A DNA stretch of 64,000 bases from Gemmatimonadales bacterium (GTDB lineage: Bacteria; Gemmatimonadota; Gemmatimonadetes; Gemmatimonadales; GWC2-71-9). A program made the position numbers and the translations under genes. The stretch covers positions 16,002-80,001 of the forward strand of contig JBIOXD010000048.1 in assembly GCA_044869265.1 (NCBI GenBank), read 5' to 3'. Below, piece after piece: positions 7,463 through 31,749 of this stretch. Within the stretch, counting starts at the first letter, position 1; each line of letters starts with the position of its first letter. A model generated the notes under the pieces. It was given only the letters and a program-made list of their open reading frames with translations. It was not told the origin of the DNA and ran no database searches.

Positions 7463-7998
7463 ATGCTTACGGTGAGAGGATTCTCCATTCGGTCGCTCGG
7501 CGCGACGATCGTCCGCGCGCCATCGGAACCGTCGCTGCCCGACGCAGTCTTCGTCGAGGATACCGCGATCGTGCTCGATGAAGCCGCGATCATTACGCGG
7601 CCTGGCGCGCCGACGCGACGCGGCGAAACCGAATCGATAGCTCTCGTCCTGGGCGCGTACAAACCGCTGCTGCGCATCCGATCGCCGGGCACCCTCGATG
7701 GTGGCGATGTGTTGCGCGTGGGACGAAGCAACTGCTCCTGATCAACGACCGCTGGGTGGGCCGAGACTGTTTTGGCGCGATGGAGATGGTGACCGTGGCA
7801 CCCGCGGAACAGGAAGGCGCCAACGCGCTGTGGGTCAGTGGAGCGGTCATCTACCCGGCGCACTATCCGCAAACCGCCGAACGTCTCGACCGGGCGGGAG
7901 TGCGCGGAGTCGCGGTCCCGGGTGCCGAGGTGGCCAAAGCCGAAGGCGGAGTGACGTGCTGCAGTCTGGTATCTGAGGCCGCGCCCCAAGAGTCATAA
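7463..7998 (+). pseudogene. Decayed dimethylarginine dimethylaminohydrolase (amidinotransferase superfamily) gene
   Basis: Two ORF pieces (7463..7741, 7756..7998). The first has PDAVFVEDTAIV...ITRPGAPTRRGE...PGTLDGGDVLRVGR. The second has ANALWVSGAVIYPAHYPQTAERL...KAEGGVTCCSLV. The first ~55 residues and ~75 central residues of the family are missing, and the pieces are in different frames. Confidence 0.7.
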
Positions 7999-8059
7999 CA
8001 CAAAATCGCGTTGGGCGTGTACCATACCGGAGAGCATGACCTGCACCTTGGAGGATGCC

Positions 8060-8650
8060 ATGGGTCGACGCGCGCTCCTTCTCCTCGCCGCCGTTCTTGT
8101 CACAAGCGTTGCCACTGCCTGCCAGAACAGCACCGATCCCGCCGGGTCGTTCGTTGTCACGGGCCACATAGAAAACCGCACGCAAGCGTCAATTCCCGCG
8201 AACGCGCGACTCTTGGCGGTGTGGACCGTCTCGGCAGGCTCACCCGATTACAGCCTCGTTTTCGGTGAGGGCACGATCGATCGCAGCGCCGGGACGTTTC
8301 GCATCCGGTTCGATCAAGCCCCACCGTTGGCAGCGCTGAATCATGGCGAGCTCGGGGTCGCGTTTCTCATCGCCACGACGGACCAATCACTGCAGGTGGG
8401 GGACACGATCCCCAGCTCTTACCCGACGACCGAAGTCATCGGCCTCACCGGTCAGTACGCCGTGATCTTCCTACAGAATCGGGACACGCAGCAGCTGCCC
8501 AGCTGGATCGCCTCTTTCGGAGATGGATACTCGGTTGGCGTCGGTGTCAAAGTGACGAACGGGTTCGACCAGTTCGCGCCCACCAGCCGGACGAGTCCGG
8601 TGTTGATCATCGACGACCTCGCGAATATCGAGGTCGTCAACTGGACGTGA
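8060..8650 (+). CDS. Hypothetical lipoprotein
   Basis: GGAGGA precedes ATG 8060. MGRRALLLLAAVLVTSVATAC is a lipobox-type signal. Normal amino-acid composition. No family recognised. Confidence 0.55.
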   Translation: MGRRALLLLAAVLVTSVATACQNSTDPAGSFVVTGHIENRTQASIPANARLLAVWTVSAGSPDYSLVFGEGTIDRSAGTFRIRFDQAPPLAALNHGELGVAFLIATTDQSLQVGDTIPSSYPTTEVIGLTGQYAVIFLQNRDTQQLPSWIASFGDGYSVGVGVKVTNGFDQFAPTSRTSPVLIIDDLANIEVVNWT

Positions 8651-8707: not shown

Positions 8708-9748
8708 TTACGGCGGTGGTGATTGACGGCTGAAACGCACCTCCAGCGTGCGCTGAGTGTTGACCTTGGCGCGCTTACCTCCGTAGCGATACGTGGTAAT
8801 CGCGATCAGCGAATCCTGAAGCGGAACCCCCGGCGCGATATTACGGAACCGGGTCAGAAAGGTCATCGAGCGAACATCCGTCAGTTCGGATCGCTCGGGC
8901 CGAGTGAGCGACGTTGCCGTGTAGCGGAGCTCGTAGGTAACGGGGTCGAGATAGGCCGAGCCCGCCATGTCCGCCGTGCCGATGCGCTTGGCCGGCTCGA
9001 AGTCGATGCGCACGAGCGCGTCTCCTCCGATCGTGTCGGCGCCCGCCAGCCGGAAGCAGTGATTGCTGATGAAGTTTGCGTCCCCGAGAACCTGCAGGTC
9101 GGCGCTGTGAATGACGAGCACATTCGCCGGATTCCCCCACGGTCCCCATGCTGGCTCGACAACTCGCCCGACCTGATATGGACGATCGTCGCTACTGGAG
9201 AAGCGCAGTTTCTGAACCTCCGGTTTTCCCGTGTCGCCGCGTTGATACACGGTGCGGTCGGACAGCTCGAGCGTGTACTGGAATGGATACGACTCGGCGA
9301 GCAGCTCGTAGCGGCGGGCGTTCTCCTGCAATTGACCAAAGACCGCGAGCAAGGCCGCGTCGCTAGAATCGGGTGGACCCGGGTGCGTGCAGGGCAACGC
9401 CGCGATGGTGACCGGCGGCAGCTCGATCGCGAGCCGGCGCAAAGCAACGTCAAGGGTCGTCAGGCCGTCGTTCCGGACCACAATCTGCGTGTCGAGCGGA
9501 GCGTAGCCGATTTGACGGATGCTGACGAGATACGAGCCTGCGCTCGTCCCTGCGAATGCGAACGTCCCGCGAGCATCGGTGAACTGCTTGTCCCTGTGGG
9601 GATACAGCGTGACGATCGTGTAGCCGAGGGGCTGACCGGTCTCGGCGCTCGTCACGGTCCCGCGCAGGCTGCGCTCGCTCGGACCCTGCGTGAACGCGAC
9701 CGAGGGCACCTGCAGGAGCAGCCACCAAAACGAATGTCGAGTATCCAA
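8708..9748 (-). CDS. Carboxypeptidase-regulatory-like (CarboxypepD_reg) domain protein
   Basis: 346 aa. N-terminal LRGTVTSAETGQPLGYTIVTLYPHRDKQFTDARGTFAFAGTSAGSYLVSIRQIGYAP is the typical CarboxypepD_reg beta-sandwich pattern. The annotated start is a TTG, so the start is uncertain. Confidence 0.6.
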   Translation of the reverse strand: MDTRHSFWWLLLQVPSVAFTQGPSERSLRGTVTSAETGQPLGYTIVTLYPHRDKQFTDARGTFAFAGTSAGSYLVSIRQIGYAPLDTQIVVRNDGLTTLDVALRRLAIELPPVTIAALPCTHPGPPDSSDAALLAVFGQLQENARRYELLAESYPFQYTLELSDRTVYQRGDTGKPEVQKLRFSSSDDRPYQVGRVVEPAWGPWGNPANVLVIHSADLQVLGDANFISNHCFRLAGADTIGGDALVRIDFEPAKRIGTADMAGSAYLDPVTYELRYTATSLTRPERSELTDVRSMTFLTRFRNIAPGVPLQDSLIAITTYRYGGKRAKVNTQRTLEVRFSRQSPPP

Positions 9749-9803
9749 TGTCGAACGCCGAATTTCGAAATTCTACATTCGAAATTCGACAATCGACATT
9801 CGT
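9731..9803. promoter_or_regulatory. AT-rich palindromic block at the 5' end of the 8708..9748 gene (candidate operator/promoter)
   Basis: A perfect 14-nt palindrome GAATTTCGAAATTC is flanked by the 10-nt inverted repeat CGAATGTCGA ... TCGACATTCG and repeated TTCGAAATTCGA / AATGTCGA words. It is strikingly AT-rich for this genome. Confidence 0.4.
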
Positions 9804-9845
9804 TTTTGCAATACCTGGGGCGTCAAAGGAGACAAGAGCCAGTGG

Positions 9846-10337
9846 CTAGCGGCCGATCCGCCGCAGTACATACACCGTCTCACGACCGTTGGCAGTGGCC
9901 GGATGCAGCGTCGCGGTCCACTCGTCGTTCGAGACGCGGCTGAAGGTGAACCCGCCGGTCGACGCGCCTGCCTGCCGGAAGCGCACTTGAGTCGCCGTCA
10001 CCGCGATGGCCGGAGTAGCCGTCCGGTCGCCGCGGCTGACGACGGTTCCATTTCGCAGCTCGATGCGCGACGAGTCGGTGACAGTGCGAAGCGTCGAGTC
10101 GGAGAAGGCCCGCATCAGCATCGTGGAGTCGTCCACGACGCGGTACTCCTCGAAGAAGGCGGGGTACGCTCCCCCGCTCCCGCGCCAGGTGCCGGCGAGC
10201 CACTGCAATTGCTGGAACTGCGCGACGGTCACGGTTGGGGGAGGTTGTTGTTCCCGCGAGCAACCAGGGAGGCCCAACAGCATCGCGAGTAGCGCGACCC
10301 TCACGGGCGACGATGCCGACGCGGACGCAAATAGCAT
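9846..10337 (-). CDS. Hypothetical lipoprotein
   Basis: 163 aa. Lipobox LLAMLLGLPGC. Plausible composition (W, F, Y, N present). No family recognised. Confidence 0.55.
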   Translation of the reverse strand: MLFASASASSPVRVALLAMLLGLPGCSREQQPPPTVTVAQFQQLQWLAGTWRGSGGAYPAFFEEYRVVDDSTMLMRAFSDSTLRTVTDSSRIELRNGTVVSRGDRTATPAIAVTATQVRFRQAGASTGGFTFSRVSNDEWTATLHPATANGRETVYVLRRIGR

Positions 10338-19762: not shown

Positions 19763-20896
19763 ATGGTCCGCAAACTCCACAACTTCGACGACTGGATCGA
19801 CTACTTCAAATACTGGCAAGACTCGATCGGGCTGCCGCCCGGTGCGCTGCGTACCTTCGAGTTCGACGCGAAGTTCGGCGACCCGGAGGTACCGCACATC
19901 GAATTCGGGCATTACAAGGGCCAGCGTAAGTGGCCCACCGTGATGCATATCCCCGATCAGCGCATCCGCGACGCGCTCCTCAACCTCATCGTGTACCAGG
20001 GCGACACGGAATTCGCCTCGGTGGAGCAACAGCGCAATCTGCTCCACCACGCGCCATCCGATTACGACCTGCTCTCGTTGCAGCGCGTGATGACTGAGGA
20101 GATGCGGCACGGATGGCAGATGTCCTACCTGCTGTGTCAGCATTTTGGCGACGAAGGCAAGCGCGAGGCGGCGAAGCTGCTCGAGCGCCGCGCCGACGAA
20201 GGTGAACGTCTGCTTGGCTCGTTCAACGAGATCGTCGACAACTGGCTCGACTTCTTCACCTACACGCAGTTCATCGATCGCGACGGCAAGTTCCAGCTGA
20301 AGATGCTCTCCGTGTCCGCGTTCGATCCGCTGTCGCGCTCCATGGGGCCGATGCTGAAGGAGGAATCGTATCACCTGGGCACCGGCAACAATGGGCTGCT
20401 GCGGATCGTGAAAGCCGGGAAGATGCCGCCCGAGGTGATCCAGCGCTTCTTCTCTAAATGGATCCCCACGGCGTTCGACCTGTTCGGGACGGACAACTCC
20501 TCATCCGCGCATTGGGCGTATGTGTGGGGACTCAAAGGCCGCTACGACGAGCGCGAGAATCCGACGAACGGGAGCGCCGAGCCCGACAAGAGCAAGCTGA
20601 ATGAAATGGCGCGCAATCTGTATCGCCAGGAAATCGTGAAGTTGATCGAGCGGCTCAACATGTTCATTCCCGAGCGCGAGCTGCACCTCAAGGTCCCGGA
20701 CCTCAGGTTCAACCGCCGCATCGGCATGTACGCCCATCAGCACTTCACCGTGGATGGAGAGCCGATCGACGCGGCGAAGTATCCGGCGTACCTGGAATCG
20801 GTGATGCCGCGTCCCGAAGACGTGGCGCGGGTGCACGACATCGAGAAGGAGCCGGGCTGGATCGAGCCCAAAAAAGCCGACAGTCTGCAGCAGTGA
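19763..20896 (+). CDS. Ferritin-like diiron-carboxylate oxygenase, PaaA/BoxB-like (phenylacetic-acid-catabolic family)
   Basis: 377 aa. Two E-x-x-H diiron-type motifs (TEEMRHGWQM and KEESYHLGTG) at the spacing expected for the PaaA/BoxB family. Family assignment is by eye only. Confidence 0.55.
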   Translation: MVRKLHNFDDWIDYFKYWQDSIGLPPGALRTFEFDAKFGDPEVPHIEFGHYKGQRKWPTVMHIPDQRIRDALLNLIVYQGDTEFASVEQQRNLLHHAPSDYDLLSLQRVMTEEMRHGWQMSYLLCQHFGDEGKREAAKLLERRADEGERLLGSFNEIVDNWLDFFTYTQFIDRDGKFQLKMLSVSAFDPLSRSMGPMLKEESYHLGTGNNGLLRIVKAGKMPPEVIQRFFSKWIPTAFDLFGTDNSSSAHWAYVWGLKGRYDERENPTNGSAEPDKSKLNEMARNLYRQEIVKLIERLNMFIPERELHLKVPDLRFNRRIGMYAHQHFTVDGEPIDAAKYPAYLESVMPRPEDVARVHDIEKEPGWIEPKKADSLQQ

Positions 20897-21594
20897 CCGC
20901 CCCCCCGCGCCACCCGCTTGTCATCGCGCACCGGGGGGCCTCGGCGATTGAGCTGGAGAATTCCCTGGCTGCCTTTCGCGCCGCAGCCGGCCAGGGGGCG
21001 GACGCGGTCGAGTTAGACGTGCATGCGACGCTGGACGGCGAGCTGGTCGTCTTCCACGACCCGTCCATTATGGGCTTGCCTATCGCGCAGGCGCGCATCC
21101 ATGATCTGTCGCGGCTTCGGTTGCCGAACGGCGAGGCATTGCCAACCCTGGCTCAGGCGCTCGATGTCATCGGGCCCAAGCTCAAGGTGTTTGTCGAAGT
21201 CAAGGTGCTCGATCCGCGATGGGACGAGCGGCTGCTTGCGACGCTGGATCAGGGGCCCAATCCTGCCGGCTATGCAGTCCACAGCTTCGCCTTTCACGTG
21301 GTGCGGCGCCTGGGTCAGAAACGCCCTACCCTGCCGCGTGGCATTCTCTCCGAAGTGGAAACACGCTCGCCGAAACAGACGCTCGACGACGCAATGGCGC
21401 AGACGCTGTGGCAAGAGCGATCGAGCCTCGACGAGCACCTCGTGAAGACGGTGCACGACCTCGGCGCAAGCGTGATCGCCTGGACGGTGGACAATCCGAG
21501 CGATCTGGAGCGGTTCCTGCGTTGGGGAGTCGACGGTCTCTGCACGAATCATCCCGAGCGAGCTCGCCGAGTAGTCGACGCGCGAGCCGCGTGA
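20893..21594 (+). CDS. Glycerophosphodiester phosphodiesterase family protein
   Basis: 233 aa. VIAHRGAS...ENSLAAFRAA...GADAVELDVHATLDGELVVFHD, C-terminal GVDGLCTNHPE. GTGA overlap with the upstream gene. Confidence 0.85.
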   Translation: MTAPPRHPLVIAHRGASAIELENSLAAFRAAAGQGADAVELDVHATLDGELVVFHDPSIMGLPIAQARIHDLSRLRLPNGEALPTLAQALDVIGPKLKVFVEVKVLDPRWDERLLATLDQGPNPAGYAVHSFAFHVVRRLGQKRPTLPRGILSEVETRSPKQTLDDAMAQTLWQERSSLDEHLVKTVHDLGASVIAWTVDNPSDLERFLRWGVDGLCTNHPERARRVVDARAA

Positions 21595-21604
21595 AGAACC
21601 CACC

Positions 21605-22471
21605 GTGACCCGCGTTGCCGTGATCGGCGCCGGGACGATGGGGCACGGCATCGCCTACGTCGCCGCGATCGCGGGCTACGACGTGCGACTCACCGATGCC
21701 AGAACGGAATCCTTGCCGCGGGCGATGGAGAAGATCGAAGCCCTGTTCGCGGGGGGACTAAAGCGAGGTAAGCTGACAGAAGCGGACGCGTCGGCAGCGA
21801 GGGGCCGTGTCCGCACGGTCGGTGCAATCGGTGAGGCGGTTACCGAAGCCGACGTCGTCATCGAAGCGATCGTGGAAGACCTTGTCACCAAGCAACAACT
21901 ATTCGTCGAGATCGAGCGGGCCGCCCCTCCGGCAGCGCTGCTCGCCTCCAACACGTCGTCGCTTTCGATCGCCCAAATCGCGACCGCCATGCAGAAGCCT
22001 GCGCGGCTCGTTGGCATGCATTTCTTCAACCCCGTCCACGTCATGAAGCTCGTCGAGGTCATCACGCACGGGCCCGACAGCCTGGTCGAAGCGGAACGCG
22101 CGGTCGAGCTCGCTCGGCGGCTCGGCAAGGAGCCGATCGTGGTCCGCGATTCTCCCGGTTTTGCCTCGAGTCGACTCGGCGTCGTGTTGGGCCTCGAGGC
22201 GATGCGGATGCTCGAGCAGGGCGTGGCGAGTGCCGAGGACATCGATAAGGCCATGGAGCTGGGCTACAACCATCCGATGGGACCGTTGAAACTGACGGAT
22301 CAGGTCGGCCTCGATGTGCGCCTCGCCATCGCCGAGTATCTGCACGACACGCTGGGCAAGGCGCAGTACGAGCCGCCCAGGATTCTCCGCGAGAAGGTGG
22401 CTAGGGGCGAGGTCGGGCGGAAATCCGGTAAAGGATTTTATACCTGGACCTCGCCCGAACTCGACCCTTGA
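21605..22471 (+). CDS. hbd: 3-hydroxybutyryl-CoA / 3-hydroxyacyl-CoA dehydrogenase
   Basis: 288 aa. Rossmann VAVIGAGTMGHGIA, SNTSSLSI, GMHFFNPVHVMKLVEV, GFASSRL, NHPMGPLKLTDQVGLD. Confidence 0.92.
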   Translation: MTRVAVIGAGTMGHGIAYVAAIAGYDVRLTDARTESLPRAMEKIEALFAGGLKRGKLTEADASAARGRVRTVGAIGEAVTEADVVIEAIVEDLVTKQQLFVEIERAAPPAALLASNTSSLSIAQIATAMQKPARLVGMHFFNPVHVMKLVEVITHGPDSLVEAERAVELARRLGKEPIVVRDSPGFASSRLGVVLGLEAMRMLEQGVASAEDIDKAMELGYNHPMGPLKLTDQVGLDVRLAIAEYLHDTLGKAQYEPPRILREKVARGEVGRKSGKGFYTWTSPELDP

Positions 22472-22490
22472 TCGCAGGACGGTCTACCGT

Positions 22491-24164
22491 TTAGACGGTC
22501 ACGGTGTTGGTCAGGCAGTAAGTGGATGGCGTAGAACCAGACTTGACGTGGCGTACTCGCGCTTGGAACAAACCCGTCTGACCACCGAGGATGTAGAAAT
22601 ACTGCGTGACCCCAGGGGATTGAGTGGAAACCACGTTCCACACGCCGTTGTACCAGATCGACACTTCGGTCGAGGCACTAGCATCCCCGTTCGTCCACGA
22701 GACCTTCAGGTAGCCCGACGGGGGAGGGATTTTTTGGAGCGTGCAGTTCGTGGGTGGCGCGAGTGGTGAAGCATCGACGGCCGCCGCCGCCTTGACGAGC
22801 CCATGGCCGAATTGGTCATCCCGACCAACGGGACCAAGATCCTCTGCGGTGGCGAACAGCTTATCGCGCACCTGTTCATTTGACCAAGTCGGGTTCTTAG
22901 CCTTAACCAGTGCTGCCGCCCCCGCGACGTGAGGTGCGGCCATGGACGTGCCGCACCAAAGCTCGGTGGTCTCATCTTCATAGGCGTCGCCCGGAACCGT
23001 GCTCAGCGCCCAAAACGGCGCAGCGAGGTCCACATGCACACCCCAGTTCGACGCGGAGCCCCTGCACGGGCTCGTGCTCGCGAAGGACTTGTTCGGCTGC
23101 ACTCCCGAAACGCCGATCACGTCGGTGTAAAACGCGGGGTAGACCACCTGGTTCCCACCGTCGTTACCGGCTGCAGCGACGATGACAATGTTGTTATCCC
23201 ACGCTTCAGCCACGGCCTGGCTCTGGGCGAGATCGAATGGGAGCTGGAGGCTCAGGCTTAGCACGTTCGCTGTAAAAATCGCCGCGTTGATACCAGCAGT
23301 CACTTCTGTGGTCGGACACGAGCCCCCGGAGCTGCAGGCGCCGTAGACGTAGACGTCCGCCGGGTTGACTCCGGGAGCGACGCCGATTACACCGATGGAA
23401 TTATTCCGCGCCGTCCAGATTCCGAGAACATGGGTACCGTGGCTGTTGGGGTAGACGTCGTTGCAGCCACCGCTACTCCCAGCACAATTGAGATCCGGCA
23501 CCAGCGGGAGGTCTTCGTGACCTTGGTCGTGCCCCGTATCGATGATTTGGATCTTCGCGCCGGCGCCCGTGGTTACGGCGTGGGCGGAAGGGGCTCCGAG
23601 CAGCGCGATGCCCCATGGCACTGTCTGTGTCACGACGTGGACCATGTCAGATTTGGCGAATCGGCGGCGAGTACCGAGGATTGCGCCGTGTTGTCGTGGC
23701 TCGACGTAGTCAACGAGGGGGTTGGATCTCAGAGCTGCCGCAACGGTGGCATCCATGCGTACGTGAGCTGCCCCGATGGCGTCATACAAATCGAGAACCT
23801 GGGCTCCCTGTGCTTGAAGAAGTTCCAGTCCGGCCGCGACCGTTGCCGCGCTGACCGCCGCCCGCACGCCTGTTTGTAGCACACGGCTGCTCGCTGGTTC
23901 CTTAAATGCGACGACGGCGTGGCCGGACTCCGCGGCGACGGCTGCGACGAGCGCGACGTCACTCGTATCCCAGGGGCGCGGTGCTGGGGGCAGGTCCATT
24001 CGGACCTCGGGCACATCGAGTGGTCCCCCTGTGCGCGCCGCAGCAGTGAAGGTTGGCCGACGAGCTTGCCGAGAAGCCGAGTCATTCGTCGGCGATTCGG
24101 AGCAGGCCACAACACCGATGACGAGCGCAAGTAGCAGTGAGTGAGCTTTCTCTCGGTGCAGCAT
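22491..24164 (-). CDS. S8 (subtilisin) family serine peptidase, lipoprotein, C-terminal Ig/Fn3-like domain
   Basis: Catalytic triad contexts [30 protein letters not shown] precedes ATG 24164, giving MLHREKAHSLLLALVIGVVAC (lipobox). The longer ORF start at 24260 lacks an SD. Confidence 0.88.
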   Translation of the reverse strand: MLHREKAHSLLLALVIGVVACSESPTNDSASRQARRPTFTAAARTGGPLDVPEVRMDLPPAPRPWDTSDVALVAAVAAESGHAVVAFKEPASSRVLQTGVRAAVSAATVAAGLELLQAQGAQVLDLYDAIGAAHVRMDATVAAALRSNPLVDYVEPRQHGAILGTRRRFAKSDMVHVVTQTVPWGIALLGAPSAHAVTTGAGAKIQIIDTGHDQGHEDLPLVPDLNCAGSSGGCNDVYPNSHGTHVLGIWTARNNSIGVIGVAPGVNPADVYVYGACSSGGSCPTTEVTAGINAAIFTANVLSLSLQLPFDLAQSQAVAEAWDNNIVIVAAAGNDGGNQVVYPAFYTDVIGVSGVQPNKSFASTSPCRGSASNWGVHVDLAAPFWALSTVPGDAYEDETTELWCGTSMAAPHVAGAAALVKAKNPTWSNEQVRDKLFATAEDLGPVGRDDQFGHGLVKAAAAVDASPLAPPTNCTLQKIPPPSGYLKVSWTNGDASASTEVSIWYNGVWNVVSTQSPGVTQYFYILGGQTGLFQARVRHVKSGSTPSTYCLTNTVTV

Positions 24165-24488
24165 TGGATCCTCCCTTCGCTTGAGGACTCTCGAGCATGC
24201 GGAGGTTGCGTCTAACGATTTGAAAAAGGGACGAGCGCGATTGCGTGAGGTAGAGTCCAAAGACGAGTGGAGTCGTCCAAAACCGGGATTAAATCGCGGG
24301 GTGTTGTACTAACGAGTGCAGTACGCCCAATCAACGAGCGGTGAAGCAGTAGACCATCAGGGAGATAAGCGGCCGATACGAGTGGCGAGTGGTGCGATTG
24401 GATATTCGGCAACCATTTTTTGAGCCAGCGCCGGGGCGCGCACTGGTGGATCGGTCAACTCGTGATTCTCTTGCTCTGCGGCTCGGCG

Positions 24489-25586
24489 CTAGGGGCTGGA
24501 AAACCGCCACACTCCCGCTCCACCACTTCCAAGGCGAGTGCCGATCACAAGTCTGCCCTCACCGTCGATCGTGACGGCGAGCCCGCCGCCAGCCCCCGCA
24601 GGTACGGGCAAGGTGTCCCAGGTCGCTCCATCATCACAGCTCCTGTAGAGCCCTAAATCGCTCCACGGCGGCCCTTGTCCACTTGGCGGAAAGCGGAGGT
24701 TCTCCCTGGCCACCGCGTAAAGCGTGGCATTCAGTTGGGCTAACGCGAAGACCTGGCCTTCACGCCGCGGGCGCAGTCGATAGGTCCACGTCTTGCCCGC
24801 ATCGTCCGAGCGAAGCACGCCTCCCGAAAGTCCTGCCCATACGCGATTGGAATTCTCGGGGTCAATCAAGAGCGCCTGAACAGCGTTCTCAAACCTTGGC
24901 GTGGGGTCGACGAATTCCCACGAAGTGCCGCTATCAGCGCTGCGCCAGATGACGGCGGTGAAGATTGAGGTCTCGCCACCAGCCCAGACTCGGCCCTGGG
25001 CGCTGGCGGCAACCGCGATCGTCCGGATCTGACCGCCCCCAATTTGACTTTCGTCACCTTGGACGAAGGCCCAAGTGCGTCCGCCGTCTTCGGACCGTAC
25101 AATCTGATCAAAGTACCCCATGAACAGTCTGTGCGGACGGTCCGGATTCATGCCGAGTGAATATGCCCAGCCTCGGTTTCCACGCCGGGCAGCGAGGCCA
25201 CCGTCCCAGGGGAGCCAGGTTGCGCCTCGATCTTCGGTCGCGAACACGGCGGCGTCAGTTTGCTCGTCGCTGTAAGGATAAACGCCAACGAGGAGACGGT
25301 CGGTCGATCCAGGTACGAATAAGATGGAAGACACAATGGCGTGATCTAAGCCGAGTGGTTGCCAGGTACTGTCGGCGAGGTGAAAGACACCGTTGTCGTG
25401 CGTACCGGCGTACATGCCCCAGGGGGTCGCTGCAAGGGCCGTTATCCACTGGTTCTCGAGGCCCAGAAAGGTCCAAGAGCCGCTCGTGGTCTCGAGTGAG
25501 CAGCCCTGAGGCCCAGCCGACGAATCGCCGCACGCCGACAGGAACGCCGCAGTGCAGGCAATGACCCAACTACGCGCGTCGTTCAT
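24489..25586 (-). CDS. Asp-box (BNR) repeat beta-propeller lipoprotein, copy 1
   Basis: 365 aa. Lipobox AAFLSAC. Five S/T-x-D-x-G-x-(T/S)-W Asp-boxes (TEDRGATW, SEDGGRTW, SADSGTSW, SDDAGKTW, SCDDGATW). Confidence 0.75.
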   Translation of the reverse strand: MNDARSWVIACTAAFLSACGDSSAGPQGCSLETTSGSWTFLGLENQWITALAATPWGMYAGTHDNGVFHLADSTWQPLGLDHAIVSSILFVPGSTDRLLVGVYPYSDEQTDAAVFATEDRGATWLPWDGGLAARRGNRGWAYSLGMNPDRPHRLFMGYFDQIVRSEDGGRTWAFVQGDESQIGGGQIRTIAVAASAQGRVWAGGETSIFTAVIWRSADSGTSWEFVDPTPRFENAVQALLIDPENSNRVWAGLSGGVLRSDDAGKTWTYRLRPRREGQVFALAQLNATLYAVARENLRFPPSGQGPPWSDLGLYRSCDDGATWDTLPVPAGAGGGLAVTIDGEGRLVIGTRLGSGGAGVWRFSSP

Positions 25587-26403
25587 GCGAACCTCGATAC
25601 GCTGTTGCGAGCCGCTCAGTTTGAGCGTTTACAGGAAGCGCCTCCAGGACACGGGCCACGAGTGGCGACCTGCCAGCGGCGCGTCTGCCATGCCGCCTCA
25701 TGTTGGAGGGATCGTCGAAACCTGCGAGCAGGCGCGCGGTGCGAACAGGCAGGTGCTCCAAGACCACGAGCTGTTTATAGGCCAGCAGCCGGATGCACAA
25801 GATGCAGTGCTCAACTCGTGCAAAGCCGGCCGAGACGCATTGGCGCTTGACCGCAGCGAGCGACATCCGACACCGGACAGCCAAGTGGCGGGGCCGACGA
25901 ATGGACCACGGATCGAAGCAGACGGCCTCGACGAGCGATCTCAATGAACGCAAAGCGGGCTCGGCGCTCAGGACGAGATCGGCAATGCAGCTGCCACTCG
26001 GTCCGTGGACAAGGCAGAGCAGTCTGGTCACCCTTTCGTCGCCCGTCCGTCCCCGGAGAACGTGTACGCCATGCTCCGAAGCAAGTTCCAGCCAGTGGGG
26101 GCTAATGGGGCTGTCTCCTGGAATCAGGCACAATGTCGCGCGCCGAAGCAATAAGTCTAACGAGCGCACTTCCACGAACGGCAGGGGATTGGTGAGGTCC
26201 ACCACCACGAAGTCACCCGAACGCACTTCGTGGGGGGGCGGTGCAGCGGCCCAATTGCGGACGTGGACCGTAGGCCTCAGCGCCCCATACAGGTTGGCAA
26301 GTGGTCGGCCAGGGGGACTGAGAATGTGCACAGTGCCTGGCAGCACATTGGGCAATGTTGCGTGACGGACCTGGCGTCCGCGCGACGCTGACGGCTGGTG
26401 CAT
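25570..26403 (-). CDS. AraC-type HTH regulator-like protein, copy 1 (N-terminal domain of unknown type)
   Basis: The C-terminus LAVRCRMSLAAVKRQCVSAGFARVEHCILCIRLLAYKQLVVLEHLPVRTARLLAGFDDPSNMRRHGRRAAGRSP follows the AraC HTH pattern. 17-nt overlap with the downstream Asp-box gene. The start codon is uncertain. Confidence 0.5.
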   Translation of the reverse strand: MHQPSASRGRQVRHATLPNVLPGTVHILSPPGRPLANLYGALRPTVHVRNWAAAPPPHEVRSGDFVVVDLTNPLPFVEVRSLDLLLRRATLCLIPGDSPISPHWLELASEHGVHVLRGRTGDERVTRLLCLVHGPSGSCIADLVLSAEPALRSLRSLVEAVCFDPWSIRRPRHLAVRCRMSLAAVKRQCVSAGFARVEHCILCIRLLAYKQLVVLEHLPVRTARLLAGFDDPSNMRRHGRRAAGRSPLVARVLEALPVNAQTERLATAYRGSHERRA

Positions 26404-26625
26404 GAAGCCTTAGTACCGCGCAACTCGGATGGCGTGCCCGCTGCATCAGTCACCGAAACACGGGTCACGCTACCGTTGAGCGGAGGGCTGCTCGTTCTAC
26501 GTCCCTACCTCACGCTATACCCTCGCTCTCTGTCACGCGTCACCGGAATGGCGCGCTGTCGCGGTGTCGCAACAGAGGCGGCCCGCGTTGAGCGTTCGCC
26601 CGCGGCGCCGTAGCTTTCGGTGCCC

Positions 26626-26830
26626 ATGAGCCTGTCGGCCGCGCCGCCACTTCCAGCCCGCATCACCGACGTCCACATCCACATCCAGCCTGGCGCCGGA
26701 ACTCAAGCCCAAACTCCAGGAGGCGATGGCGTAAGGGAAGGAATCGCATTGGGACTTCCTCATTTCCCTGGTGGACGACCCCAACGGGCCTACTCGATGC
26801 TGATGGACAAGTCGGGCGTTGGCGGGCGCG
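26626..26830 (+). pseudogene. Amidohydrolase 5' fragment 1 (frameshifted, with stop)
   Basis: MSLSAAPPLPARITDVHIHIQP matches the start of the intact gene at 30865. Several indels and a TAA follow. Similarity also covers ~50 nt upstream and ends near 26830. Confidence 0.8.
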
Positions 26831-26866
26831 GTTGACTCGTGGATCATACCTTGGTATTACTTGAGT

Positions 26867-27133
26867 ATGACAAAACGTGGCAAGGTGGCCGTTAGCATCT
26901 CCGCGGAGGCACTCGCGGCAGCGGAGCGGCTGCGCAAGCACACGGGGGAAAGCCGCAGCGCCGTGTTCGAGCGAGCGCTTCATGGACTCATGGCGGAGGC
27001 GCAACGAACGGCGCGCAGCCGCCGCTACGTCAACGGCTACCGCCGCCGACCGGAGAGTCGGAAGGAGGTCGCAGCAGCACTCTCCGCCGCGCTGCCGGCG
27101 TTGGCGGCCGAGAGTTGGAATGAAACGCGGTGA
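26867..27133 (+). CDS. Ribbon-helix-helix (CopG-like) antitoxin
   Basis: 88 aa from ATG 26867. MTKRGKVAVSISAEALAAAERLRKHTGESRSAVFERALHGL is an RHH pattern. 14-nt overlap with the toxin gene. Confidence 0.8.
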   Translation: MTKRGKVAVSISAEALAAAERLRKHTGESRSAVFERALHGLMAEAQRTARSRRYVNGYRRRPESRKEVAAALSAALPALAAESWNETR

Positions 27134-27434
27134 GGTCTGGTGGGCCCACCTGCCCCGGCCGATCGGTCGCCGGCCGGTCGTGCTCGTCTCGCGCGACGAA
27201 GCCTATACCGTGCGCGAGCTGGTGACGGTGGTCCCGGTGACCACGCGGGTGCGCGACATCCCCGTCGAAGTGACCCTCGGCCGCACCGAGGGCCTGCCGC
27301 GAGCCTGCGTGGCCAACGCCGACACGATCACGACTATCCCCAAGCGCGCCCTGCGCGAGTACGCCGGCGTGCTGGACGGCGAGAAAGTCGCAGCGCTCGA
27401 CGCCGCGCTCCGGTTCGCGCTCAGTCTAGAGTGA
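27120..27434 (+). CDS. MazF/PemK-family type II toxin (endoribonuclease)
   Basis: 104 aa. MKRGEVWWAHLPRPIGRRPVVLVSRDEAY...VVPVTTRVRDIPVEVTL...ANADTITTIPKRAL matches the PemK/MazF pattern. Confidence 0.8.
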   Translation: MKRGEVWWAHLPRPIGRRPVVLVSRDEAYTVRELVTVVPVTTRVRDIPVEVTLGRTEGLPRACVANADTITTIPKRALREYAGVLDGEKVAALDAALRFALSLE

Positions 27435-27814
27435 ACGTCCCCCGCCGCATCACCGACGTGCACATCCACATCCAGCCGTGGCGACAACTCATGCCCAAAG
27501 TCCAGGAGGCGATGCGCAAGGGAAAAGAGGCCCATTGGGACTTCCTCATTTCCCTGATGGACGACCCCAACGCCTTACTGGAGGTGATGGATAAGTCGGG
27601 TGTGTGGCGCGTCGGCCTCGTCAACTATCCGAGCCCCGACATCATGGGGTTCGACGACTCGACCAACACCTTCGCCGCCAAGTAGGCACGGGCGAATCCG
27701 GAACGGCTGCTGCCGTACGGCGGCGTGCACGCGCGCTACAGCAAGGATCCCGCGGGCGACGTCGATCGCCTCATCGATCTTGGGATCCGGCTCCTGAAGA
27801 TCCATCCGCCCCAT
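27431..27814 (+). pseudogene. Amidohydrolase 5' fragment 2 (codons ~10-125, in-frame TAG), truncated at a duplication joint
   Basis: RRITDVHIHIQPWRQLMPKVQEAMRKGKEAHWDFL...TFAAK* then ...ERLLPYGGVHARYSKDPAGDVDRLIDLGIRLLKIHPPH. The Tyr codon TAC of the intact gene is TAG here (27683-27685). Homology stops abruptly near 27814. Confidence 0.85.
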
Positions 27815-28296
27815 CAATCGCGACCGCCATGCAGAAGCCTGCGCGGCTCGTCGGCATGCATTTCTTCAACCCCGTCAACGTCATGAAGCTCGTCGAAGTC
27901 ATCACGCACGGGCCCGACAGCCTGGTCGAGGCGGAACGCGCGGTCGAGCTCGCTCGGCGGCTCGGCAAGGAGCCGATCGTGGTCCGGGATTCTCCCGGTT
28001 TTGCCTCGAGTAGACTGGGCGTCGTGTTGGGCCTCGAGGCGATGCGGATGCTCGAGCAGGGTGTGGCGAGTGCCGAGGACATCGACAAGGCGATGGAGTT
28101 GGGCTACAACCATCCGATGGGGCCACTGAAGCTCACCGATCAGGTCGGCCTCGATGTGCGTTTGGCGATCGCGGAGTATCTGCACGCCACACTCGGCAAG
28201 TCCCACTATGAGCCGCCGAGAATCCTGCGCGAGAAAGTGAAGAAGGGGGAGCTGGGGAAGAAGTCGGGAAAGGGGTTCTATACTTGGAGCGATTGA
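27815..28296 (+). pseudogene. Duplicate of the 3' ~480 nt of hbd (no start, fused to amidohydrolase fragment)
   Basis: IATAMQKPARLVGMHFFNPVNVMKLVEV...GKGFYTWSD aligns with hbd 21975-22471. There are only a handful of substitutions in the first ~250 nt by eye, and more toward the 3' end. Confidence 0.9.
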
Positions 28297-28341
28297 ACTT
28301 GGGGGCGAAGCCAGATCAGCTCTTCGCTCCCGGTTTGATGG

Positions 28342-29442
28342 CTAGGGGCCGGAAAACCGCCACACTCCCGCTCCACCACTCCCATCGCGTGTGCCAATGA
28401 CAAGTCTTCCCTCGCCGTCGATCGTGGCGGCGTACCCGCCGCCAATCCCCTGAGGTACGGGCAAGCTGTCCCAGGTCTCTCCGTCATCACAGCTCCTGTA
28501 GAGCCCTAAGTCGCTCCACTGGCGCCCGTGTCCGCTTGGTGGAAGGCGGATGTTCTCCGTGGTCAACGCGTAAAACCTGCCATTCACTCGGGCTAACGCG
28601 AGGACATCGCGGTCAAGCCGCGGGCGCAGTGTATAAGTCCATGTCTTGCCCGCATCGTTGGAGCGCATGACGCCTCCCGTAACTCCAGCGAGTCCTGCCC
28701 AGACGCGATTGGAATTCTCGAGGTCAACCATGAGCGCCAGAACAGCGTTCTCATGCCTCGGCGTGGGATCCACGAATTCCCATGAAGTGCCGCCATCATC
28801 GCTGCGCCAGATGACGGCGGTGAAGATTGAGGTCCTGCCACCGGCCCAGACTCGGCCCTGTGCGCTGGGGGCAACCTCGATCGCTCGGATGTGACCGCCA
28901 CCAATCTGGGTTTCGTCGCCTTGGACGAAGGCCCAAGTGCGTCCGCCGTCTTCGGACCGGACAATCTGATCAAAGTATCCCATGAACAGTCTGTCCGGAC
29001 GGTCCGCATTCATGCCGAGTGAATATGCCCAGCCTCGGTTCCCACGCCGGGCAGCGAGCCCACCGTCCCAGGGGAGCCAGGTCGCGCCTCGATCTTCGGT
29101 CGCGAACACGGCGGCGTCGGTTTGGTCGTCGCTGAAAGGGTAGACGCCCACCAAGAGACGGTCGGTCGGTCCAGGCACGAATAGTATGGAAGACACATGA
29201 TGTAGCCCGAGCGGTTGCCAGGTACTGTCGGAAAGATGGAAGACACCGCTGTCGGCCGTACCGGCGTACAGGCCCCATGGGGTCATCGCGAGCGACGTTA
29301 TCCACTGGTCCTCGAGACCGAGAAACGTCCAACTGCTGGTCTCGCTCTCGAGCCGGCAACCCTGAGGTCCAGCGGAGGAATCGCCGCAGGCTCCGAGGAA
29401 CGCGGCAACGCAGGCAATCATCCAGCTACGCGCGTGGTTCAT
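28342..29442 (-). CDS. Asp-box (BNR) repeat beta-propeller lipoprotein, copy 2
   Basis: Start at ATG 29442 gives MNHARSWMIACVAAFLGAC (lipobox), collinear with copy 1. Same Asp-boxes (TEDRGATW, SEDGGRTW, SDDGGTSW, SNDAGKTW, SCDDGETW). Confidence 0.75.
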   Translation of the reverse strand: MNHARSWMIACVAAFLGACGDSSAGPQGCRLESETSSWTFLGLEDQWITSLAMTPWGLYAGTADSGVFHLSDSTWQPLGLHHVSSILFVPGPTDRLLVGVYPFSDDQTDAAVFATEDRGATWLPWDGGLAARRGNRGWAYSLGMNADRPDRLFMGYFDQIVRSEDGGRTWAFVQGDETQIGGGHIRAIEVAPSAQGRVWAGGRTSIFTAVIWRSDDGGTSWEFVDPTPRHENAVLALMVDLENSNRVWAGLAGVTGGVMRSNDAGKTWTYTLRPRLDRDVLALARVNGRFYALTTENIRLPPSGHGRQWSDLGLYRSCDDGETWDSLPVPQGIGGGYAATIDGEGRLVIGTRDGSGGAGVWRFSGP

Positions 29443-29470
29443 GCGAACTTTGATCCGATGTTGCGAGCCG

Positions 29471-30301
29471 CTAACGTTGAGCATTTGCAGGAAGCGCCTC
29501 CATTGCGCGGGCCACGAGTGGCGAGCGATCAGCTGCGCGTCTGCCATGCCGCCTCATGTTTGAGGGATCGTCGAAACCAGCCAGACCGCGCGCGGTACGA
29601 ACGGGTAAATGCTCCGTGGCTACGAGCTCGCTGTATGCCAGCAGTCGGACGCAGAGGATGAAGTGCTCAATTCGTCTGAAGCCGACCTGGGTGCACCGAC
29701 GCCTCACCGCGCCCAGCGTCATCCGAGTCCGCACCGCTCAGCCACGCGGTCGACGAATGGACCATGGATCGAGGCACACGGCCTCCACGAGCGCTTGCAC
29801 CGAACGGAGCACGGGCTCGGCGCTCAGGACGAGATCGGCAATGAAGTTGCCACTCGGTCCCTGGACAAGGCAGAGTAGTTTCGTCACCCTTTCGTCGGCC
29901 GTCCGTCCCCCGAGGACGTGTACTCCAGGCTGCGAAGCGAGGTCCAGCCAGTGGGGGCTAATGGAGCTGTCTCCTGGAATCAGGCACAGTGTCGCGCGCC
30001 GAAGCAATAAGTCTAGCGAGCGCACTTCCACGGGAGGCTGGGGATTGGTGAGGTCGACGACCACGAAGTCACCCGAACGGACTTCGTGCGCGGGTGGTGC
30101 AGCGGCCCAATTTCGGACGTGGACGGTAGGTCTCAGCGCCCCATACAGGTTGGCAAGTGGTCGGCCGGGGGACTGAGAATGTGCAGAGTGCCTGGCAGCA
30201 CATTCCGCGCTGTTGCATGACGGACCTGGCGTCCGCGCGACGCTGACGGCTGGTGCATGAAGCCTTAGTACCGCGCAACTCGGATGGTGTGCCCGCTGCA
30301 T
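29471..30301 (-). pseudogene. AraC-type regulator-like gene, copy 2, interrupted by an in-frame TGA
   Basis: ORFs 29738..30301 and 29471..29734 are in the same frame, separated by TGA at 29738-29740 (copy 1 RRPRHLAVRCRM versus copy 2 RRPRG*AVRTRM). A 1-nt indel relative to copy 1 also changes the N-terminal frame. Confidence 0.7.
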
Positions 30302-30335
30302 CAGTCACTGAAACACGGGTCACGCGACCGTCGCA

Positions 30336-30425
30336 GTATGGACCCCCGAGAATCCTGCGTGAGAGAGTGAATGAAGGGGGAGCTGGGAAAAAGTCGGGAC
30401 CGGGGTTCTACATCTGGACCGACTG
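30336..30425 (+). pseudogene. Third remnant of the hbd 3' end (~90 nt)
   Basis: CAGTATGGACCCCCGAGAATCCTGCGTGAGAGAGTGAATGAAGGGGGAGCTGGGAAAAAGTCGGGACCGGGGTTCTACATCTGGACCGACTGA parallels hbd codons ...YEPPRILREKV..G..GKKSGKGFYTW..*. Confidence 0.75.
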
Positions 30426-30474
30426 AGTCCCTGGAGCTTTGACTTCCGACAACATGCTCTGGTATGACTAACGC

Positions 30475-30810
30475 ATGACCAAACGTCGCAAAGTGGCAGT
30501 CATCATCTCGGCAGACACGCTCGCGGCGGCGGAACGGATCCGCGCGCGAACAGGCGAAAGCCGCAGCGCCGTGTTCGAACGAGCGCTGCACGGCTTGATG
30601 GCTGAGGCGCAGCGTGCCGAGCGCAGCCGCCGTTACGTCAACGGATACCGCCGCCGCCCGGAGGGCGGCGCGGAAGTCGCGGTTGCGCTTCGCGTGACGT
30701 TGCTCGGCCTGGCAGCCGAGCCGTGGGTGAAGCGTGGTGAAGTCTGGTGGGCTCATACGAAGGTCGCGGCGCTCGACAGCGCGCTCCGGTTCGTCCTCAG
30801 TCTCGAGTGA
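30475..30810 (+). CDS. RHH antitoxin fused in frame to MazF remnants (toxin core deleted)
   Basis: 111 aa. MTKRRKVAVIISADTLAAAERIRARTGESRSAVFERALHGL... continues as ...KRGEVWWAH|TKVAALDSALRFVLSLE. This is the first ~9 and last ~17 toxin residues joined, with ~79 codons missing. Confidence 0.75.
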   Translation: MTKRRKVAVIISADTLAAAERIRARTGESRSAVFERALHGLMAEAQRAERSRRYVNGYRRRPEGGAEVAVALRVTLLGLAAEPWVKRGEVWWAHTKVAALDSALRFVLSLE

Positions 30811-30864
30811 AAGTCACCCACATCCGTTGAGGGTTCTGCGGCAGCGCGCTAGCTTTGGGCGCCC

Positions 30865-31749
30865 ATGAGTCTCCCGGCCGCACCGCCACTCCCCGCCCGT
30901 ATCACCGACGTCCACATCCATATCCAGCCGTGGCGCGACCTCAAGCCCAAAGTCCAGCAGGCGATGCGCAAGGGGAAGGAAGATCATTGGGACTTCCTCA
31001 TCTGCCTGATGGACGATCCTCGCGCGCTGCTCGAGGTCATGGACCGCTCCGGCGTCTGGCGCGTAGGACTCGTGAATTATCCCAGTCCCGACATCATGGG
31101 GTTCGACGACTCCACTAACACGTTCGCCGCGAAGTACGCGCAGGCCGATTCGGAGCGGTTGCTTCCGTATGGCGGCGTGCATGCCCGCTTCACGAAAGAC
31201 CCGGCCGGCGATGTCGACCGGCTCGTCGACCTGGGGATCCGGCTGCTCAAGATCCACCCGCCCCACCAGGGCTTCCCCGCCAACGCGTACACCGACGGGC
31301 TGGAGGCGCTGGGGAAGATCTATCGGCGCTGCGAAGAGCGCGGCTTGCCGGTGATGGTCCACACCGGCACGTCGATCTTTCCCGGCGCGCGATCGAAGTG
31401 GGGCAATCCGCTCGAGCTGGATGACATCGCGATCGACTTCCCCGATTTGCCGCTCGTCATGGCGCACGGCGGCCGGCCCCTGTACATGGAGGAAGCGTTC
31501 TTCATTCTGCGACGTCACGGGCACGTCAGGCTCGACGTATCGGGCATTCCGCCCGCGAAATTGCTGGAGTACTTTCCCCGCCTGACCGAGATCGTCGATC
31601 GCGTGTTGTGGGGCACGGACTGGCCCAGCCCAGGAGTCAAGGACCTACGGCAGAACATCGATCAATTCCTGGCACTGCCGCTCGCCGATGCGCAGCGGCG
31701 CGCCATCCTCGAAACCAACGCGCTCACGCTCTTTCCCGTGGAGACTTGA
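30865..31749 (+). CDS. Amidohydrolase-2 family metal-dependent hydrolase (TIM barrel), intact copy
   Basis: 294 aa. N-terminal ITDVHIHIQPW (HxH), LLKIHPPHQGF, VMVHTG, LVMAHGG, WGTDWP. Confidence 0.8.
   Translation: MSLPAAPPLPARITDVHIHIQPWRDLKPKVQQAMRKGKEDHWDFLICLMDDPRALLEVMDRSGVWRVGLVNYPSPDIMGFDDSTNTFAAKYAQADSERLLPYGGVHARFTKDPAGDVDRLVDLGIRLLKIHPPHQGFPANAYTDGLEALGKIYRRCEERGLPVMVHTGTSIFPGARSKWGNPLELDDIAIDFPDLPLVMAHGGRPLYMEEAFFILRRHGHVRLDVSGIPPAKLLEYFPRLTEIVDRVLWGTDWPSPGVKDLRQNIDQFLALPLADAQRRAILETNALTLFPVET

Follow-up and report, generated by a model that had tools for sequence, protein, structure and literature searches.

The stretch of DNA analysed here, a window of 64,000 nucleotides from the genome of a soil Gemmatimonadales bacterium, carries an 8.4-kb island between hbd, a 3-hydroxyacyl-CoA dehydrogenase gene, and a gene for an amidohydrolase. 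The island is built of two collinear units that stand head to tail, each running from the 3' end of hbd through an Asp-box lipoprotein gene (B), an AraC-like regulator gene (R) and a toxin-antitoxin (TA) pair to the 5' end of the amidohydrolase gene, with indels and with an S8 peptidase gene after hbd in the first unit only (Table 1). The unit measures ~5.8 kb. Gene calls are backed by Pfam matches to 3HCDH_N, 3HCDH_C, Peptidase_S8, BNR/Sortilin, PemK/MazF and Amidohydro_2 and by weak matches to HTH_18 and RHH_1, the latter a ribbon-helix-helix (RHH) family. Outside 21.6-31.8 kb, a search of the whole window found no additional copy of any of these genes (hbd, S8, B, R, TA, amidohydrolase).

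Table 1. Features of the hbd-amidohydrolase island, in window coordinates.
Feature	Coordinates	Strand	Remarks
Intact hbd (3-hydroxyacyl-CoA dehydrogenase)	21605..22471	+	Chimera; full Pfam 3HCDH_N + 3HCDH_C
hbd block A, copy 1	21976..22275	+	Copies 1 and 2 are genuine close paralogs in this segment alone
S8 subtilase	22491..24260	-	Copy 1 only; Pfam Peptidase_S8, E = 4.6e-36
B1, Asp-box/BNR beta-propeller lipoprotein	24489..25586	-	Copy-1 allele; Pfam BNR_2 + Sortilin
R1, AraC-like HTH regulator	25570..26403	-	Intact; weak HTH_18 match
u, ~109-nt insert	26477..26585	.	Between R1 upstream region and amidohydrolase leader
A5a, old displaced amidohydrolase head	26586..26850	+	With island-type leader; heavily decayed; between R1 and first TA pair
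T, RHH antitoxin + MazF/PemK toxin	26819..27434	+	Intact; antitoxin 26819-27133, toxin 27120-27434
A5b, young amidohydrolase 5' fragment	27438..27815	+	Island (donor) type; ends at joint; 81% to intact gene
Head-to-tail joint	27811..27820	+	Break at 27815/27816; base-level alignments
hbd 3' fragment with native tail	27816..28296	+	Reading frame still open
B2, Asp-box lipoprotein	28342..29547	-	Copy-2 allele; likely true start near 29442
R2*, regulator pseudogene	29429..30301	-	In-frame TGA at R1 codon 174; 1-nt frameshift near 5' end
H3b, old displaced third hbd tail	30330..30426	+	83% identical to 28200-28296
T', RHH gene fused to MazF remnant	30475..30810	+	Toxin core deleted
Island-type leader + intact amidohydrolase	30825..31749	+	Leader 30825-30889, ORF 30865-31749; Pfam Amidohydro_2

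The first-pass annotation of this DNA had described a head-to-tail joint of an amidohydrolase 5' fragment to the middle of hbd, and base-level alignment places exactly such a joint at 27815/27816, where amidohydrolase sequence (...AAGATCCATCCGCCCCATCA) runs directly into hbd sequence (ATCGCGACCGCCATGCAG...). The amidohydrolase breaks off at about codon 135 in the open reading frame (ORF) numbering of the window; the codon ~125 given earlier applies only if counted from the conserved RITDV start. To the right, hbd sets in at nt 372. Of the microhomology claimed at the joint, ~1 nt ('A') is strict, and the similarity of the CGCCC..ATC type nearby is only imperfect. Self-BLASTN over 21.0-32.5 kb bears out that the 3' end of hbd recurs collinearly, as 473 ungapped nt with 89.4% identity (21976-22448 and 27816-28288, E = 0), the first 300 nt of which are 96% identical. 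The remaining pairs are 24488-26476 with 28341-30331 (85.6%), the TA region 26852-27148 with 30460-30755 (75.8%), 27383-27443 with 30759-30819 (85%) and the amidohydrolase heads 27438-27816 with 30890-31268 (81.0%). The complementary losses noted earlier likewise stand: the S8 gene is found only in copy 1, and copy 2 has an in-frame TGA in its regulator and a toxin-deleted TA pair. Four features had escaped notice, namely H3b, A5a, u and a private nonsense codon in A5b, and the locus contains at least eight joints rather than one.

Per-segment divergence, from which the first-pass annotation had proposed to date the events, is not uniform. By the Nei-Gojobori method, synonymous divergence (dS) is 0.15 in the first 300 nt of the hbd repeat (block A; nonsynonymous divergence, dN, 0.004; dN/dS 0.03), 0.30 between B1 and B2 (dN/dS 0.36), 1.28 between A5b and the intact amidohydrolase (dN/dS 0.05) and 1.95 between the two hbd tails (dN/dS 0.05). 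Only in block A (21976-22275 against 27816-28115) do the two copies behave as close paralogs: they are 96.4% identical over this stretch, are sisters at a bootstrap of 0.985 and fall inside the clade of L001 and L002, the closest relatives of the window. The close-paralog stretch covers ~270-300 nt (21976-~22260 and 27816-~28100). Beyond that stretch, single-copy versions in other genomes (L161, L170, L172, L164) are closer to each of the two copies than these are to one another. The B1 and B2 proteins, the A5b fragment and the intact amidohydrolase, and the two hbd tails are each sisters in 0/200 bootstraps, and the nucleotides of the B-R block (1,833 ungapped columns) in 0/300, with copy 1 branching outside a group of copy 2, L172 and L164. 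Identity across this block is 85.6% between the two copies, 89.1% between copy 2 and L172, and 87.8% between copy 1 and L172; dS between B2 and the L172 gene is 0.20 against 0.30 between B1 and B2. B1 and B2 are 79-81% identical to each other, and the nearest proteins are P0003 of L170 for B1 (88%) and P0007 of L172 for B2 (87%). R1 is 89% identical to the R gene of L172 and L174, and the S8 gene 84-88% to the S8 genes at the same position in L161, L170 and L172. Relatives of this quality came for B entirely from a metagenome protein collection and its contigs; GTDB representative genomes searched with B1 gave only relatives at ≤30% identity.

These segments fall into two classes of origin. 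From 22355 to 27815 (hbd tail, S8, B1, R1, A5b), the window is 84-91% identical to genomes of the L161/L172 type, whose core flanks (GDPD and the 5' part of hbd) reach only 69-75% to the window. Because the identity of the island exceeds that of the core flanks, the island must have been transferred horizontally, and parts of the neighbouring core genes travelled with it. The hbd fragment, the 3' half of the amidohydrolase and the M16 peptidase gene are, in turn, 92-95% identical to L001 and L002, in which the site is empty. Intact hbd is itself composite. By sliding identity and informative sites it is of the native (L001/L002) type to ~22260 and of the island type from ~22355, with the crossover within ~22240-22370; from ~22378 almost all informative sites agree with L161 (86-93% identity), and identity to L001/L002 is only 50-73%. 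The fragment beyond the joint is 91.7% identical to L001/L002, and its tail clusters with them at a bootstrap of 0.98. The tail of intact hbd is accordingly the one that arrived with the island, and the native tail is the one now in the fragment. At the other border, the intact amidohydrolase is native-type in its 3' half (95% to L001/L002 over 31269-31749), and A5b is 84-87% identical to L161, L164, L170 and L029 right up to the joint.

Two side observations concern these flanks. GDPD and the 5' part of hbd are less similar to L001/L002 (83-89%) than the neighbouring genes are (90-95%), and the intact amidohydrolase (30898-31749) is a mosaic relative to L001/L002, with ~82-93% identity to ~31450 and 97-100% thereafter, which suggests a second recombination breakpoint inside the gene near ~31450. 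The left flank of the window compared with L002 varies between 75 and 97%, which is too heterogeneous for the limits of an imported tract, or the roles of donor and recipient, to be read from it.

The fragments differ in how far they have decayed. The hbd fragment has 12 synonymous and 2 nonsynonymous private changes in a frame that is still open; A5b has 13 and 6, the latter with the private nonsense codon; and A5a has 5 and 17, together with frameshifts and a stop. From this gradation of private changes, the event that joined A5a to the TA pair is old and the joint of A5b to hbd recent. The very low dN/dS between A5b and the intact gene, and between the hbd pieces, shows that these pieces diverged while functional, in separate genomes, purifying selection having acted on both joint fragments until recently, and the joint is by these comparisons younger than the divergence of the blocks that it links. 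A5a is 79% identical to 30825-31083 and 86% to 27445-27609, so that overlapping amidohydrolase heads, A5a and A5b (86% identical over ~170 nt), lie on either side of the first TA pair. H3b sits between R2 and the second TA pair and is followed by GTCCC, like the GTCGC that follows the hbd stop at empty sites. The junction of R with H3b is common to the second block of the window and to L172, and this scar therefore predates the split of the copy-2 and L172 alleles. The stop in R2* is private to the window relative to the nearest relatives of copy 2 and gives no dating of the inactivation relative to the joining.

The setting of the island in related genomes was examined in 80 loci fetched with the amidohydrolase as query, and inserts were compared by targeted blastn and tblastn, tblastx being too noisy in such GC-rich DNA. 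Most of the 80 loci have the order PaaA-like (up2)-GDPD-hbd-amidohydrolase-M16-M16, with ~5 bp between the hbd stop and the amidohydrolase, and this holds for L001 and L002, whose flanks are 90-95% identical to the window at the nucleotide level. At least 14 loci carry varied cargo between the two genes, elsewhere including small secreted proteins, an M20 peptidase with a PIN toxin, a kinase cluster, and a cluster of ECF-sigma, FecR, SusC, SusD and GH18 genes. As hbd and amidohydrolase lie 5 bp apart in about 60 relatives and the cargo varies, the 8.4 kb in the window is an insertion at a hotspot, and the hbd-amidohydrolase junction is, on this comparison, an integration hotspot in this Gemmatimonadales lineage. 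Genomes with an unduplicated arrangement, for which the first-pass annotation had proposed to look, do exist, but they are of two different allele types and the closest relatives have neither. L161 and L170 have the order GDPD-hbd-S8-B-R-amidohydrolase-M16, in single copy and without a TA pair; L164-L169 have hbd-B-R-amidohydrolase without S8; and L172 has hbd-S8-B-R-H3b, a 176-aa ORF, a u-like segment and a second hbd tail. The S8 deletion of L164 is different from, and independent of, the loss of S8 from copy 2 of the window. No other genome has both B copies or the window joint among the relatives examined and in a metagenome search.

Asp-box proteins seem to be recurrent cargo of this hotspot. 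Seven genomes (L065, L066, L071, L072, L074, L075 and L078) encode a different secreted Asp-box-like protein of ~480-560 aa there, on the minus strand (sequence GPFTFENFELGAAPGTVCPG...), with only sub-threshold BNR_2 and Tli3 matches. The hbd genes of L051 (1095-1906) and L065 (7087-7772) appear to be interrupted by a gap or frame change near residues 137-183. Both in the window (19763-22471 and upstream) and in L161 (13054-20486), a beta-oxidation or paa-like cluster with genes for TetR, enoyl-CoA hydratases, aldehyde dehydrogenase, thiolase, PaaA/PaaC-like proteins and GDPD ends in hbd.

Extra fragments of the anchor genes occur in four island-bearing loci. An independent joint of amidohydrolase to hbd is present in AG3 (L255 and L071, contig QHUK01000017.1; merged coordinates about 7890-8300), in the order up2-GDPD-hbd-Asp-box (minus strand), then amidohydrolase nt ~35-300 joined to hbd nt ~442-579, then ECF sigma-FecR-SusC-SusD-GH18-amidohydrolase. 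Its breakpoints differ from those of the window, the cargos on either side are unrelated, and the hbd fragment has an internal deletion; the amidohydrolase fragment matches AG3's own gene at 99.6%, and the joint is on that account very young. In L074, a mid-fragment of hbd lies directly upstream of an RHH-MazF pair, which the amidohydrolase follows. L172 has two serial displaced hbd tails (reverse-complement coordinates 9120-9218 and 9893-10042) downstream of its single-copy S8-B-R island; the two are separated by the 176-aa ORF, which has no Pfam match, and suggest nested insertions. The hbd breakpoints differ in every case (nt 372, ~442, ~551, ~700 and ~756), and a site-specific recombinase is disfavoured by this variation.

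We infer, at a probability of roughly 55%, that two already-diverged island alleles were stacked head to tail through one homologous and one illegitimate junction, in the manner of homology-facilitated illegitimate recombination (HFIR). Allele 1 (~22355-27815) would comprise its own hbd tail, S8, B1, R1, u, A5a, the RHH-MazF pair and A5b; allele 2 (27816-~31000+) would comprise the native 3' part of hbd, B2, R2*, H3b, the toxin-deleted TA pair and the leader with the amidohydrolase. Two related chromosomes with different alleles at the hotspot would have recombined, the incoming DNA having entered by any transfer route, and which of the two was resident is likewise part of what we deduce. At one end, ordinary homologous recombination would have taken place in a conserved flank; at the other, an illegitimate and nearly homology-free join would have linked amidohydrolase codon ~135 to hbd nt 372. 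The alleles would thereby be stacked rather than swapped, in a product that resembles a tandem duplication. Unequal inter-chromatid exchange and Campbell-type integration of a circle would be equivalent variants. The same process would have operated at least twice before at this locus, leaving H3b and A5a, the latter as an amidohydrolase head pushed aside by an incoming TA-amidohydrolase segment.

Several observations weigh against this reading. B1 and B2 were each found on one contig only, and neither parental single-allele strain, the carrier of copy 1 or that of copy 2, was found in public data. A 23-mer across the joint has no match in JGI metagenomes, and the joint occurs in no independent assembly. 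We know of no documented natural transformation, or other transfer route, in this lineage. The block-A copies have window-specific derived bases in common, which fits an in-situ duplication of that stretch equally well; the excess of synonymous differences between them (10 against 1 nonsynonymous) rests on 11 sites; and a test for shared polymorphism at these 11 differences is weak, with P = 0.03 for all sites and no significance on third positions. Finally, the 99.6% identity of the AG3 fragment to its own gene is what a plain in-situ duplication would give.

These last points lend some substance to an alternative in two steps, which is on balance unlikely but deserves to be taken seriously: a unit from hbd nt 372 to amidohydrolase codon ~135 was duplicated in situ, and a diverged allele then overwrote most of one copy by homologous recombination, with gene conversion perhaps keeping block A similar. 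Spontaneous tandem duplications are frequent, the sister relationship of the block-A copies agrees with this history, the AG3 fragment fits a recent duplication in place in that genome, and conserved flanks have clearly served for allelic replacement here. This sequence of events needs at least two steps where one suffices, and it places narrow demands on the crossovers. If copy 1 was overwritten, the right crossover must lie within ~25 nt of the joint, since A5b is donor-type right up to it; if it was copy 2, there are two possibilities: a left crossover no more than 36 nt from the joint, or an origin in situ of the 11 block-A differences, for which the ratio of 10 synonymous to 1 nonsynonymous is unexpected in a pseudogene copy.

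An ancient clade-wide duplication, with later loss of one copy in L161, L164, L170 and L172 and of both in L001/L002 and with recent gene conversion in block A, is improbable. It would account for the presence elsewhere of both B1-like and B2-like sublineages and for the H3b common to L172, yet it requires many precise losses that restored the 5-bp spacing of hbd and amidohydrolase, and the hbd fragment and A5b show little of the pseudogene decay to be expected. That no other genome retains both B copies or the joint speaks in the same direction, and when the same genomes are compared, similarity is far higher in the island genes than in the core flanks, which points to transfer, not vertical descent. 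Slightly less probable still is a chimera in the metagenome assembly of the island alleles of two co-occurring strains, which is raised by the origin of the window in a single metagenomic contig (149,840 nt), seen once, and by the restriction of the joint to that assembly. The overlap of ~1 nt at the joint leaves no shared k-mer for a switch in the assembly graph; the private nonsense codon and the excess of nonsynonymous changes in A5b are what a real pseudogene would show, rather than the working allele of another strain; and analogous joints or scars occur in the independent assemblies of AG3, L074 and L172.

The tandem duplication of the first-pass annotation keeps its true joint and its close paralogs in block A but loses its single event. 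One in-situ duplication, with all differences due to later mutation and reciprocal decay, would explain the collinear head-to-tail blocks, the clean joint and the complementary gene losses, and it predicts one dS where values from 0.15 to ~2 are found across the unit. The copies are never sisters outside the 300-nt block A and have closer relatives in other genomes; intact hbd has a tail of the L161 type and the fragment a native one; and a dN/dS of 0.05 between A5b and the intact gene indicates divergence as working genes. As the sole explanation it is refuted by the trees, dS and segment origins, and we give it next to no credence. Site-specific elements that target the hbd 3' end, with att duplication and tandem integration, are as hard to credit and were rejected: displaced hbd tails do flank the cargo, like the gene ends at integrase-borne islands, yet no integrase, recombinase or transposase ORF or Pfam match was found in 22.4-30.9 kb of the window or in related islands, scans found no tRNA, tmRNA or Rfam element that might serve as an RNA-gene target, the breakpoints in hbd and in the amidohydrolase vary from scar to scar without a conserved core repeat, and amidohydrolase heads are displaced as well.

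Stacking of diverged alleles by one homologous and one illegitimate junction has counterparts among known systems. In HFIR as defined in PMC3240628 (see also de Vries & Wackernagel 2002, Prudhomme et al. 2002 and Meier & Wackernagel 2003, as cited in PMC5361080), one end is anchored by homology in a conserved gene, the other joins with little or no homology, and foreign DNA is gained beside the anchor. The window resembles this in its illegitimate junction, with ~1 nt of microhomology, and in DNA that comes from another genome (22355-27815 is L161/L172-like and the closest core relatives have an empty site). Its anchors, hbd and amidohydrolase, show mosaic breakpoints, namely the switch from native to island type in hbd (~22240-22370) and the rise in amidohydrolase identity to L001/L002 after ~31450, either of which might belong to the event that formed the joint. 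The window differs in that the process is deduced from one natural sequence, what counts as 'foreign' DNA is a diverged version of the resident locus itself, and the outcome mimics a tandem duplication.

HFIR-like sequential displacement arrays have been described at type VI secretion system (T6SS) and Rhs loci (PMC5361080), together with C-terminal displacement in Rhs, contact-dependent inhibition (CDI) and T6SS systems (Jackson et al. 2009 and Poole et al. 2011, as referenced there). An incoming module brings its own gene end, the resident end is pushed downstream as an orphan, and repetition builds strings of orphan 3' ends. The displaced hbd tails at 27816-28296 and 30330-30426, and the two in L172, are comparable, and here too no integrase is involved. 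The anchors in the window are metabolic genes of a housekeeping type rather than polymorphic toxins. In place of effector-immunity pairs, the cargo comprises genes for a protease, an Asp-box lipoprotein and a regulator together with a TA pair, and the 5' heads of the downstream gene are displaced as well (A5a and A5b), so that scars derive from both flanks. Merodiploids and tandem duplications generated in transformation by unequal inter-chromatid integration (PMC3784515) show that a single imported fragment can make a head-to-tail partial diploid, and such a process would explain the duplication of ~300 nt of resident hbd if the junctions fell on sister chromatids. In those cases both junctions are homologous (repeats derived from insertion sequences) and the duplications span 100-900 kb, whereas the window has an illegitimate junction on one side, a unit of ~5.8 kb and heteroallelic copies. 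A spontaneous tandem duplication, finally, has the same end-to-start joint at a microhomology-poor site and the same collinear repeats, and differs in all that concerns the ancestry of the copies: here they are non-sister beyond 300 nt of hbd, with dS from 0.15 to ~2 and closer relatives elsewhere. Integration hotspots, HFIR and displacement arrays are thus kinds of phenomena already known; metabolic anchor genes, cargo unrelated to toxins and scars from both flanks set the window apart from the published cases.

The remaining features of the island call for brief comment. The S8 gene, placed earlier at 22491-24164, is confirmed by Pfam; its longest ORF starts at 24260 (TTG), orthologues are called at 501-556 aa and the true start is uncertain. 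In the first TA pair, a small antitoxin gene overlaps the downstream PemK-fold toxin gene by 27120-27133, as in type II systems, with a strong match for the toxin (PemK_toxin, E = 6e-18) and, for the antitoxin, a weak RHH_1 match that is below the cutoff (E = 2.6e-3). The pair is 74% identical in nucleotides to a TA pair upstream of the amidohydrolase in L074. T' has no match to 27149-27382, and MazF residues ~11-88 are gone. The insert u is missing from L164 and L170 and has a 74% match in L172 (reverse-complement coordinates 9768-9866); there is no repeat of it elsewhere in the window and no Rfam match, and it could be a small mobile or regulatory element. The short spacer between the stop of the hbd fragment and that of B2 (28297-28341) holds an inverted repeat (GGGGGCGAAG...CTTCGCTCCC), rich in GC and resembling a bidirectional terminator; relative to copy 1, S8 and the ~240 nt downstream of B are absent here. 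A conserved leader of ~65 nt (30825-30889 and 26586-26650 in the window; also L164 and L170) is common to the island-bearing alleles; through it the amidohydrolase acquires an N-terminal extension (MSLPAAPPLPA) and an upstream region of its own. Where the site is empty, only ~5 bp separate the hbd stop from the amidohydrolase start, and the two genes may be translationally coupled. The island may thus alter how the amidohydrolase is expressed.

More speculatively, the hbd-amidohydrolase junction could act as a recombinase-free 'cassette stacker', which repeatedly adds flank-anchored alleles instead of swapping them, each addition leaving a truncated copy of an anchor gene as a dated scar, so that islands grow as ordered arrays whose alleles stem from different lineages. 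We consider this generalisation doubtful. Nearby TA modules might help to retain stacked alleles.

Overall, the locus is a good example to learn from and warns against taking tandem homologous blocks for in-situ duplicates, although it will hold no strong surprise for the specialist. An apparent tandem duplication with later decay may in truth consist of two alleles that were acquired horizontally and stacked, and dating or interpreting such duplicates by their divergence is then wrong. The order of events can nonetheless be read from a single sequence through the graded decay of its scars, with A5a old, A5b young and the hbd fragment open and hardly changed. Most documented footprints of this kind come from toxin loci (Rhs, T6SS) and from transformation experiments in the laboratory; the window would add a natural example from an uncultured soil phylum, in which islands at a core-gene hotspot move with pieces of the flanking genes and one-sided recombination leaves truncated anchors behind as scars. 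Should stacking of this kind prove general, past one-sided recombination in uncultured bacteria could be read from the partial core-gene duplicates at their hotspots.

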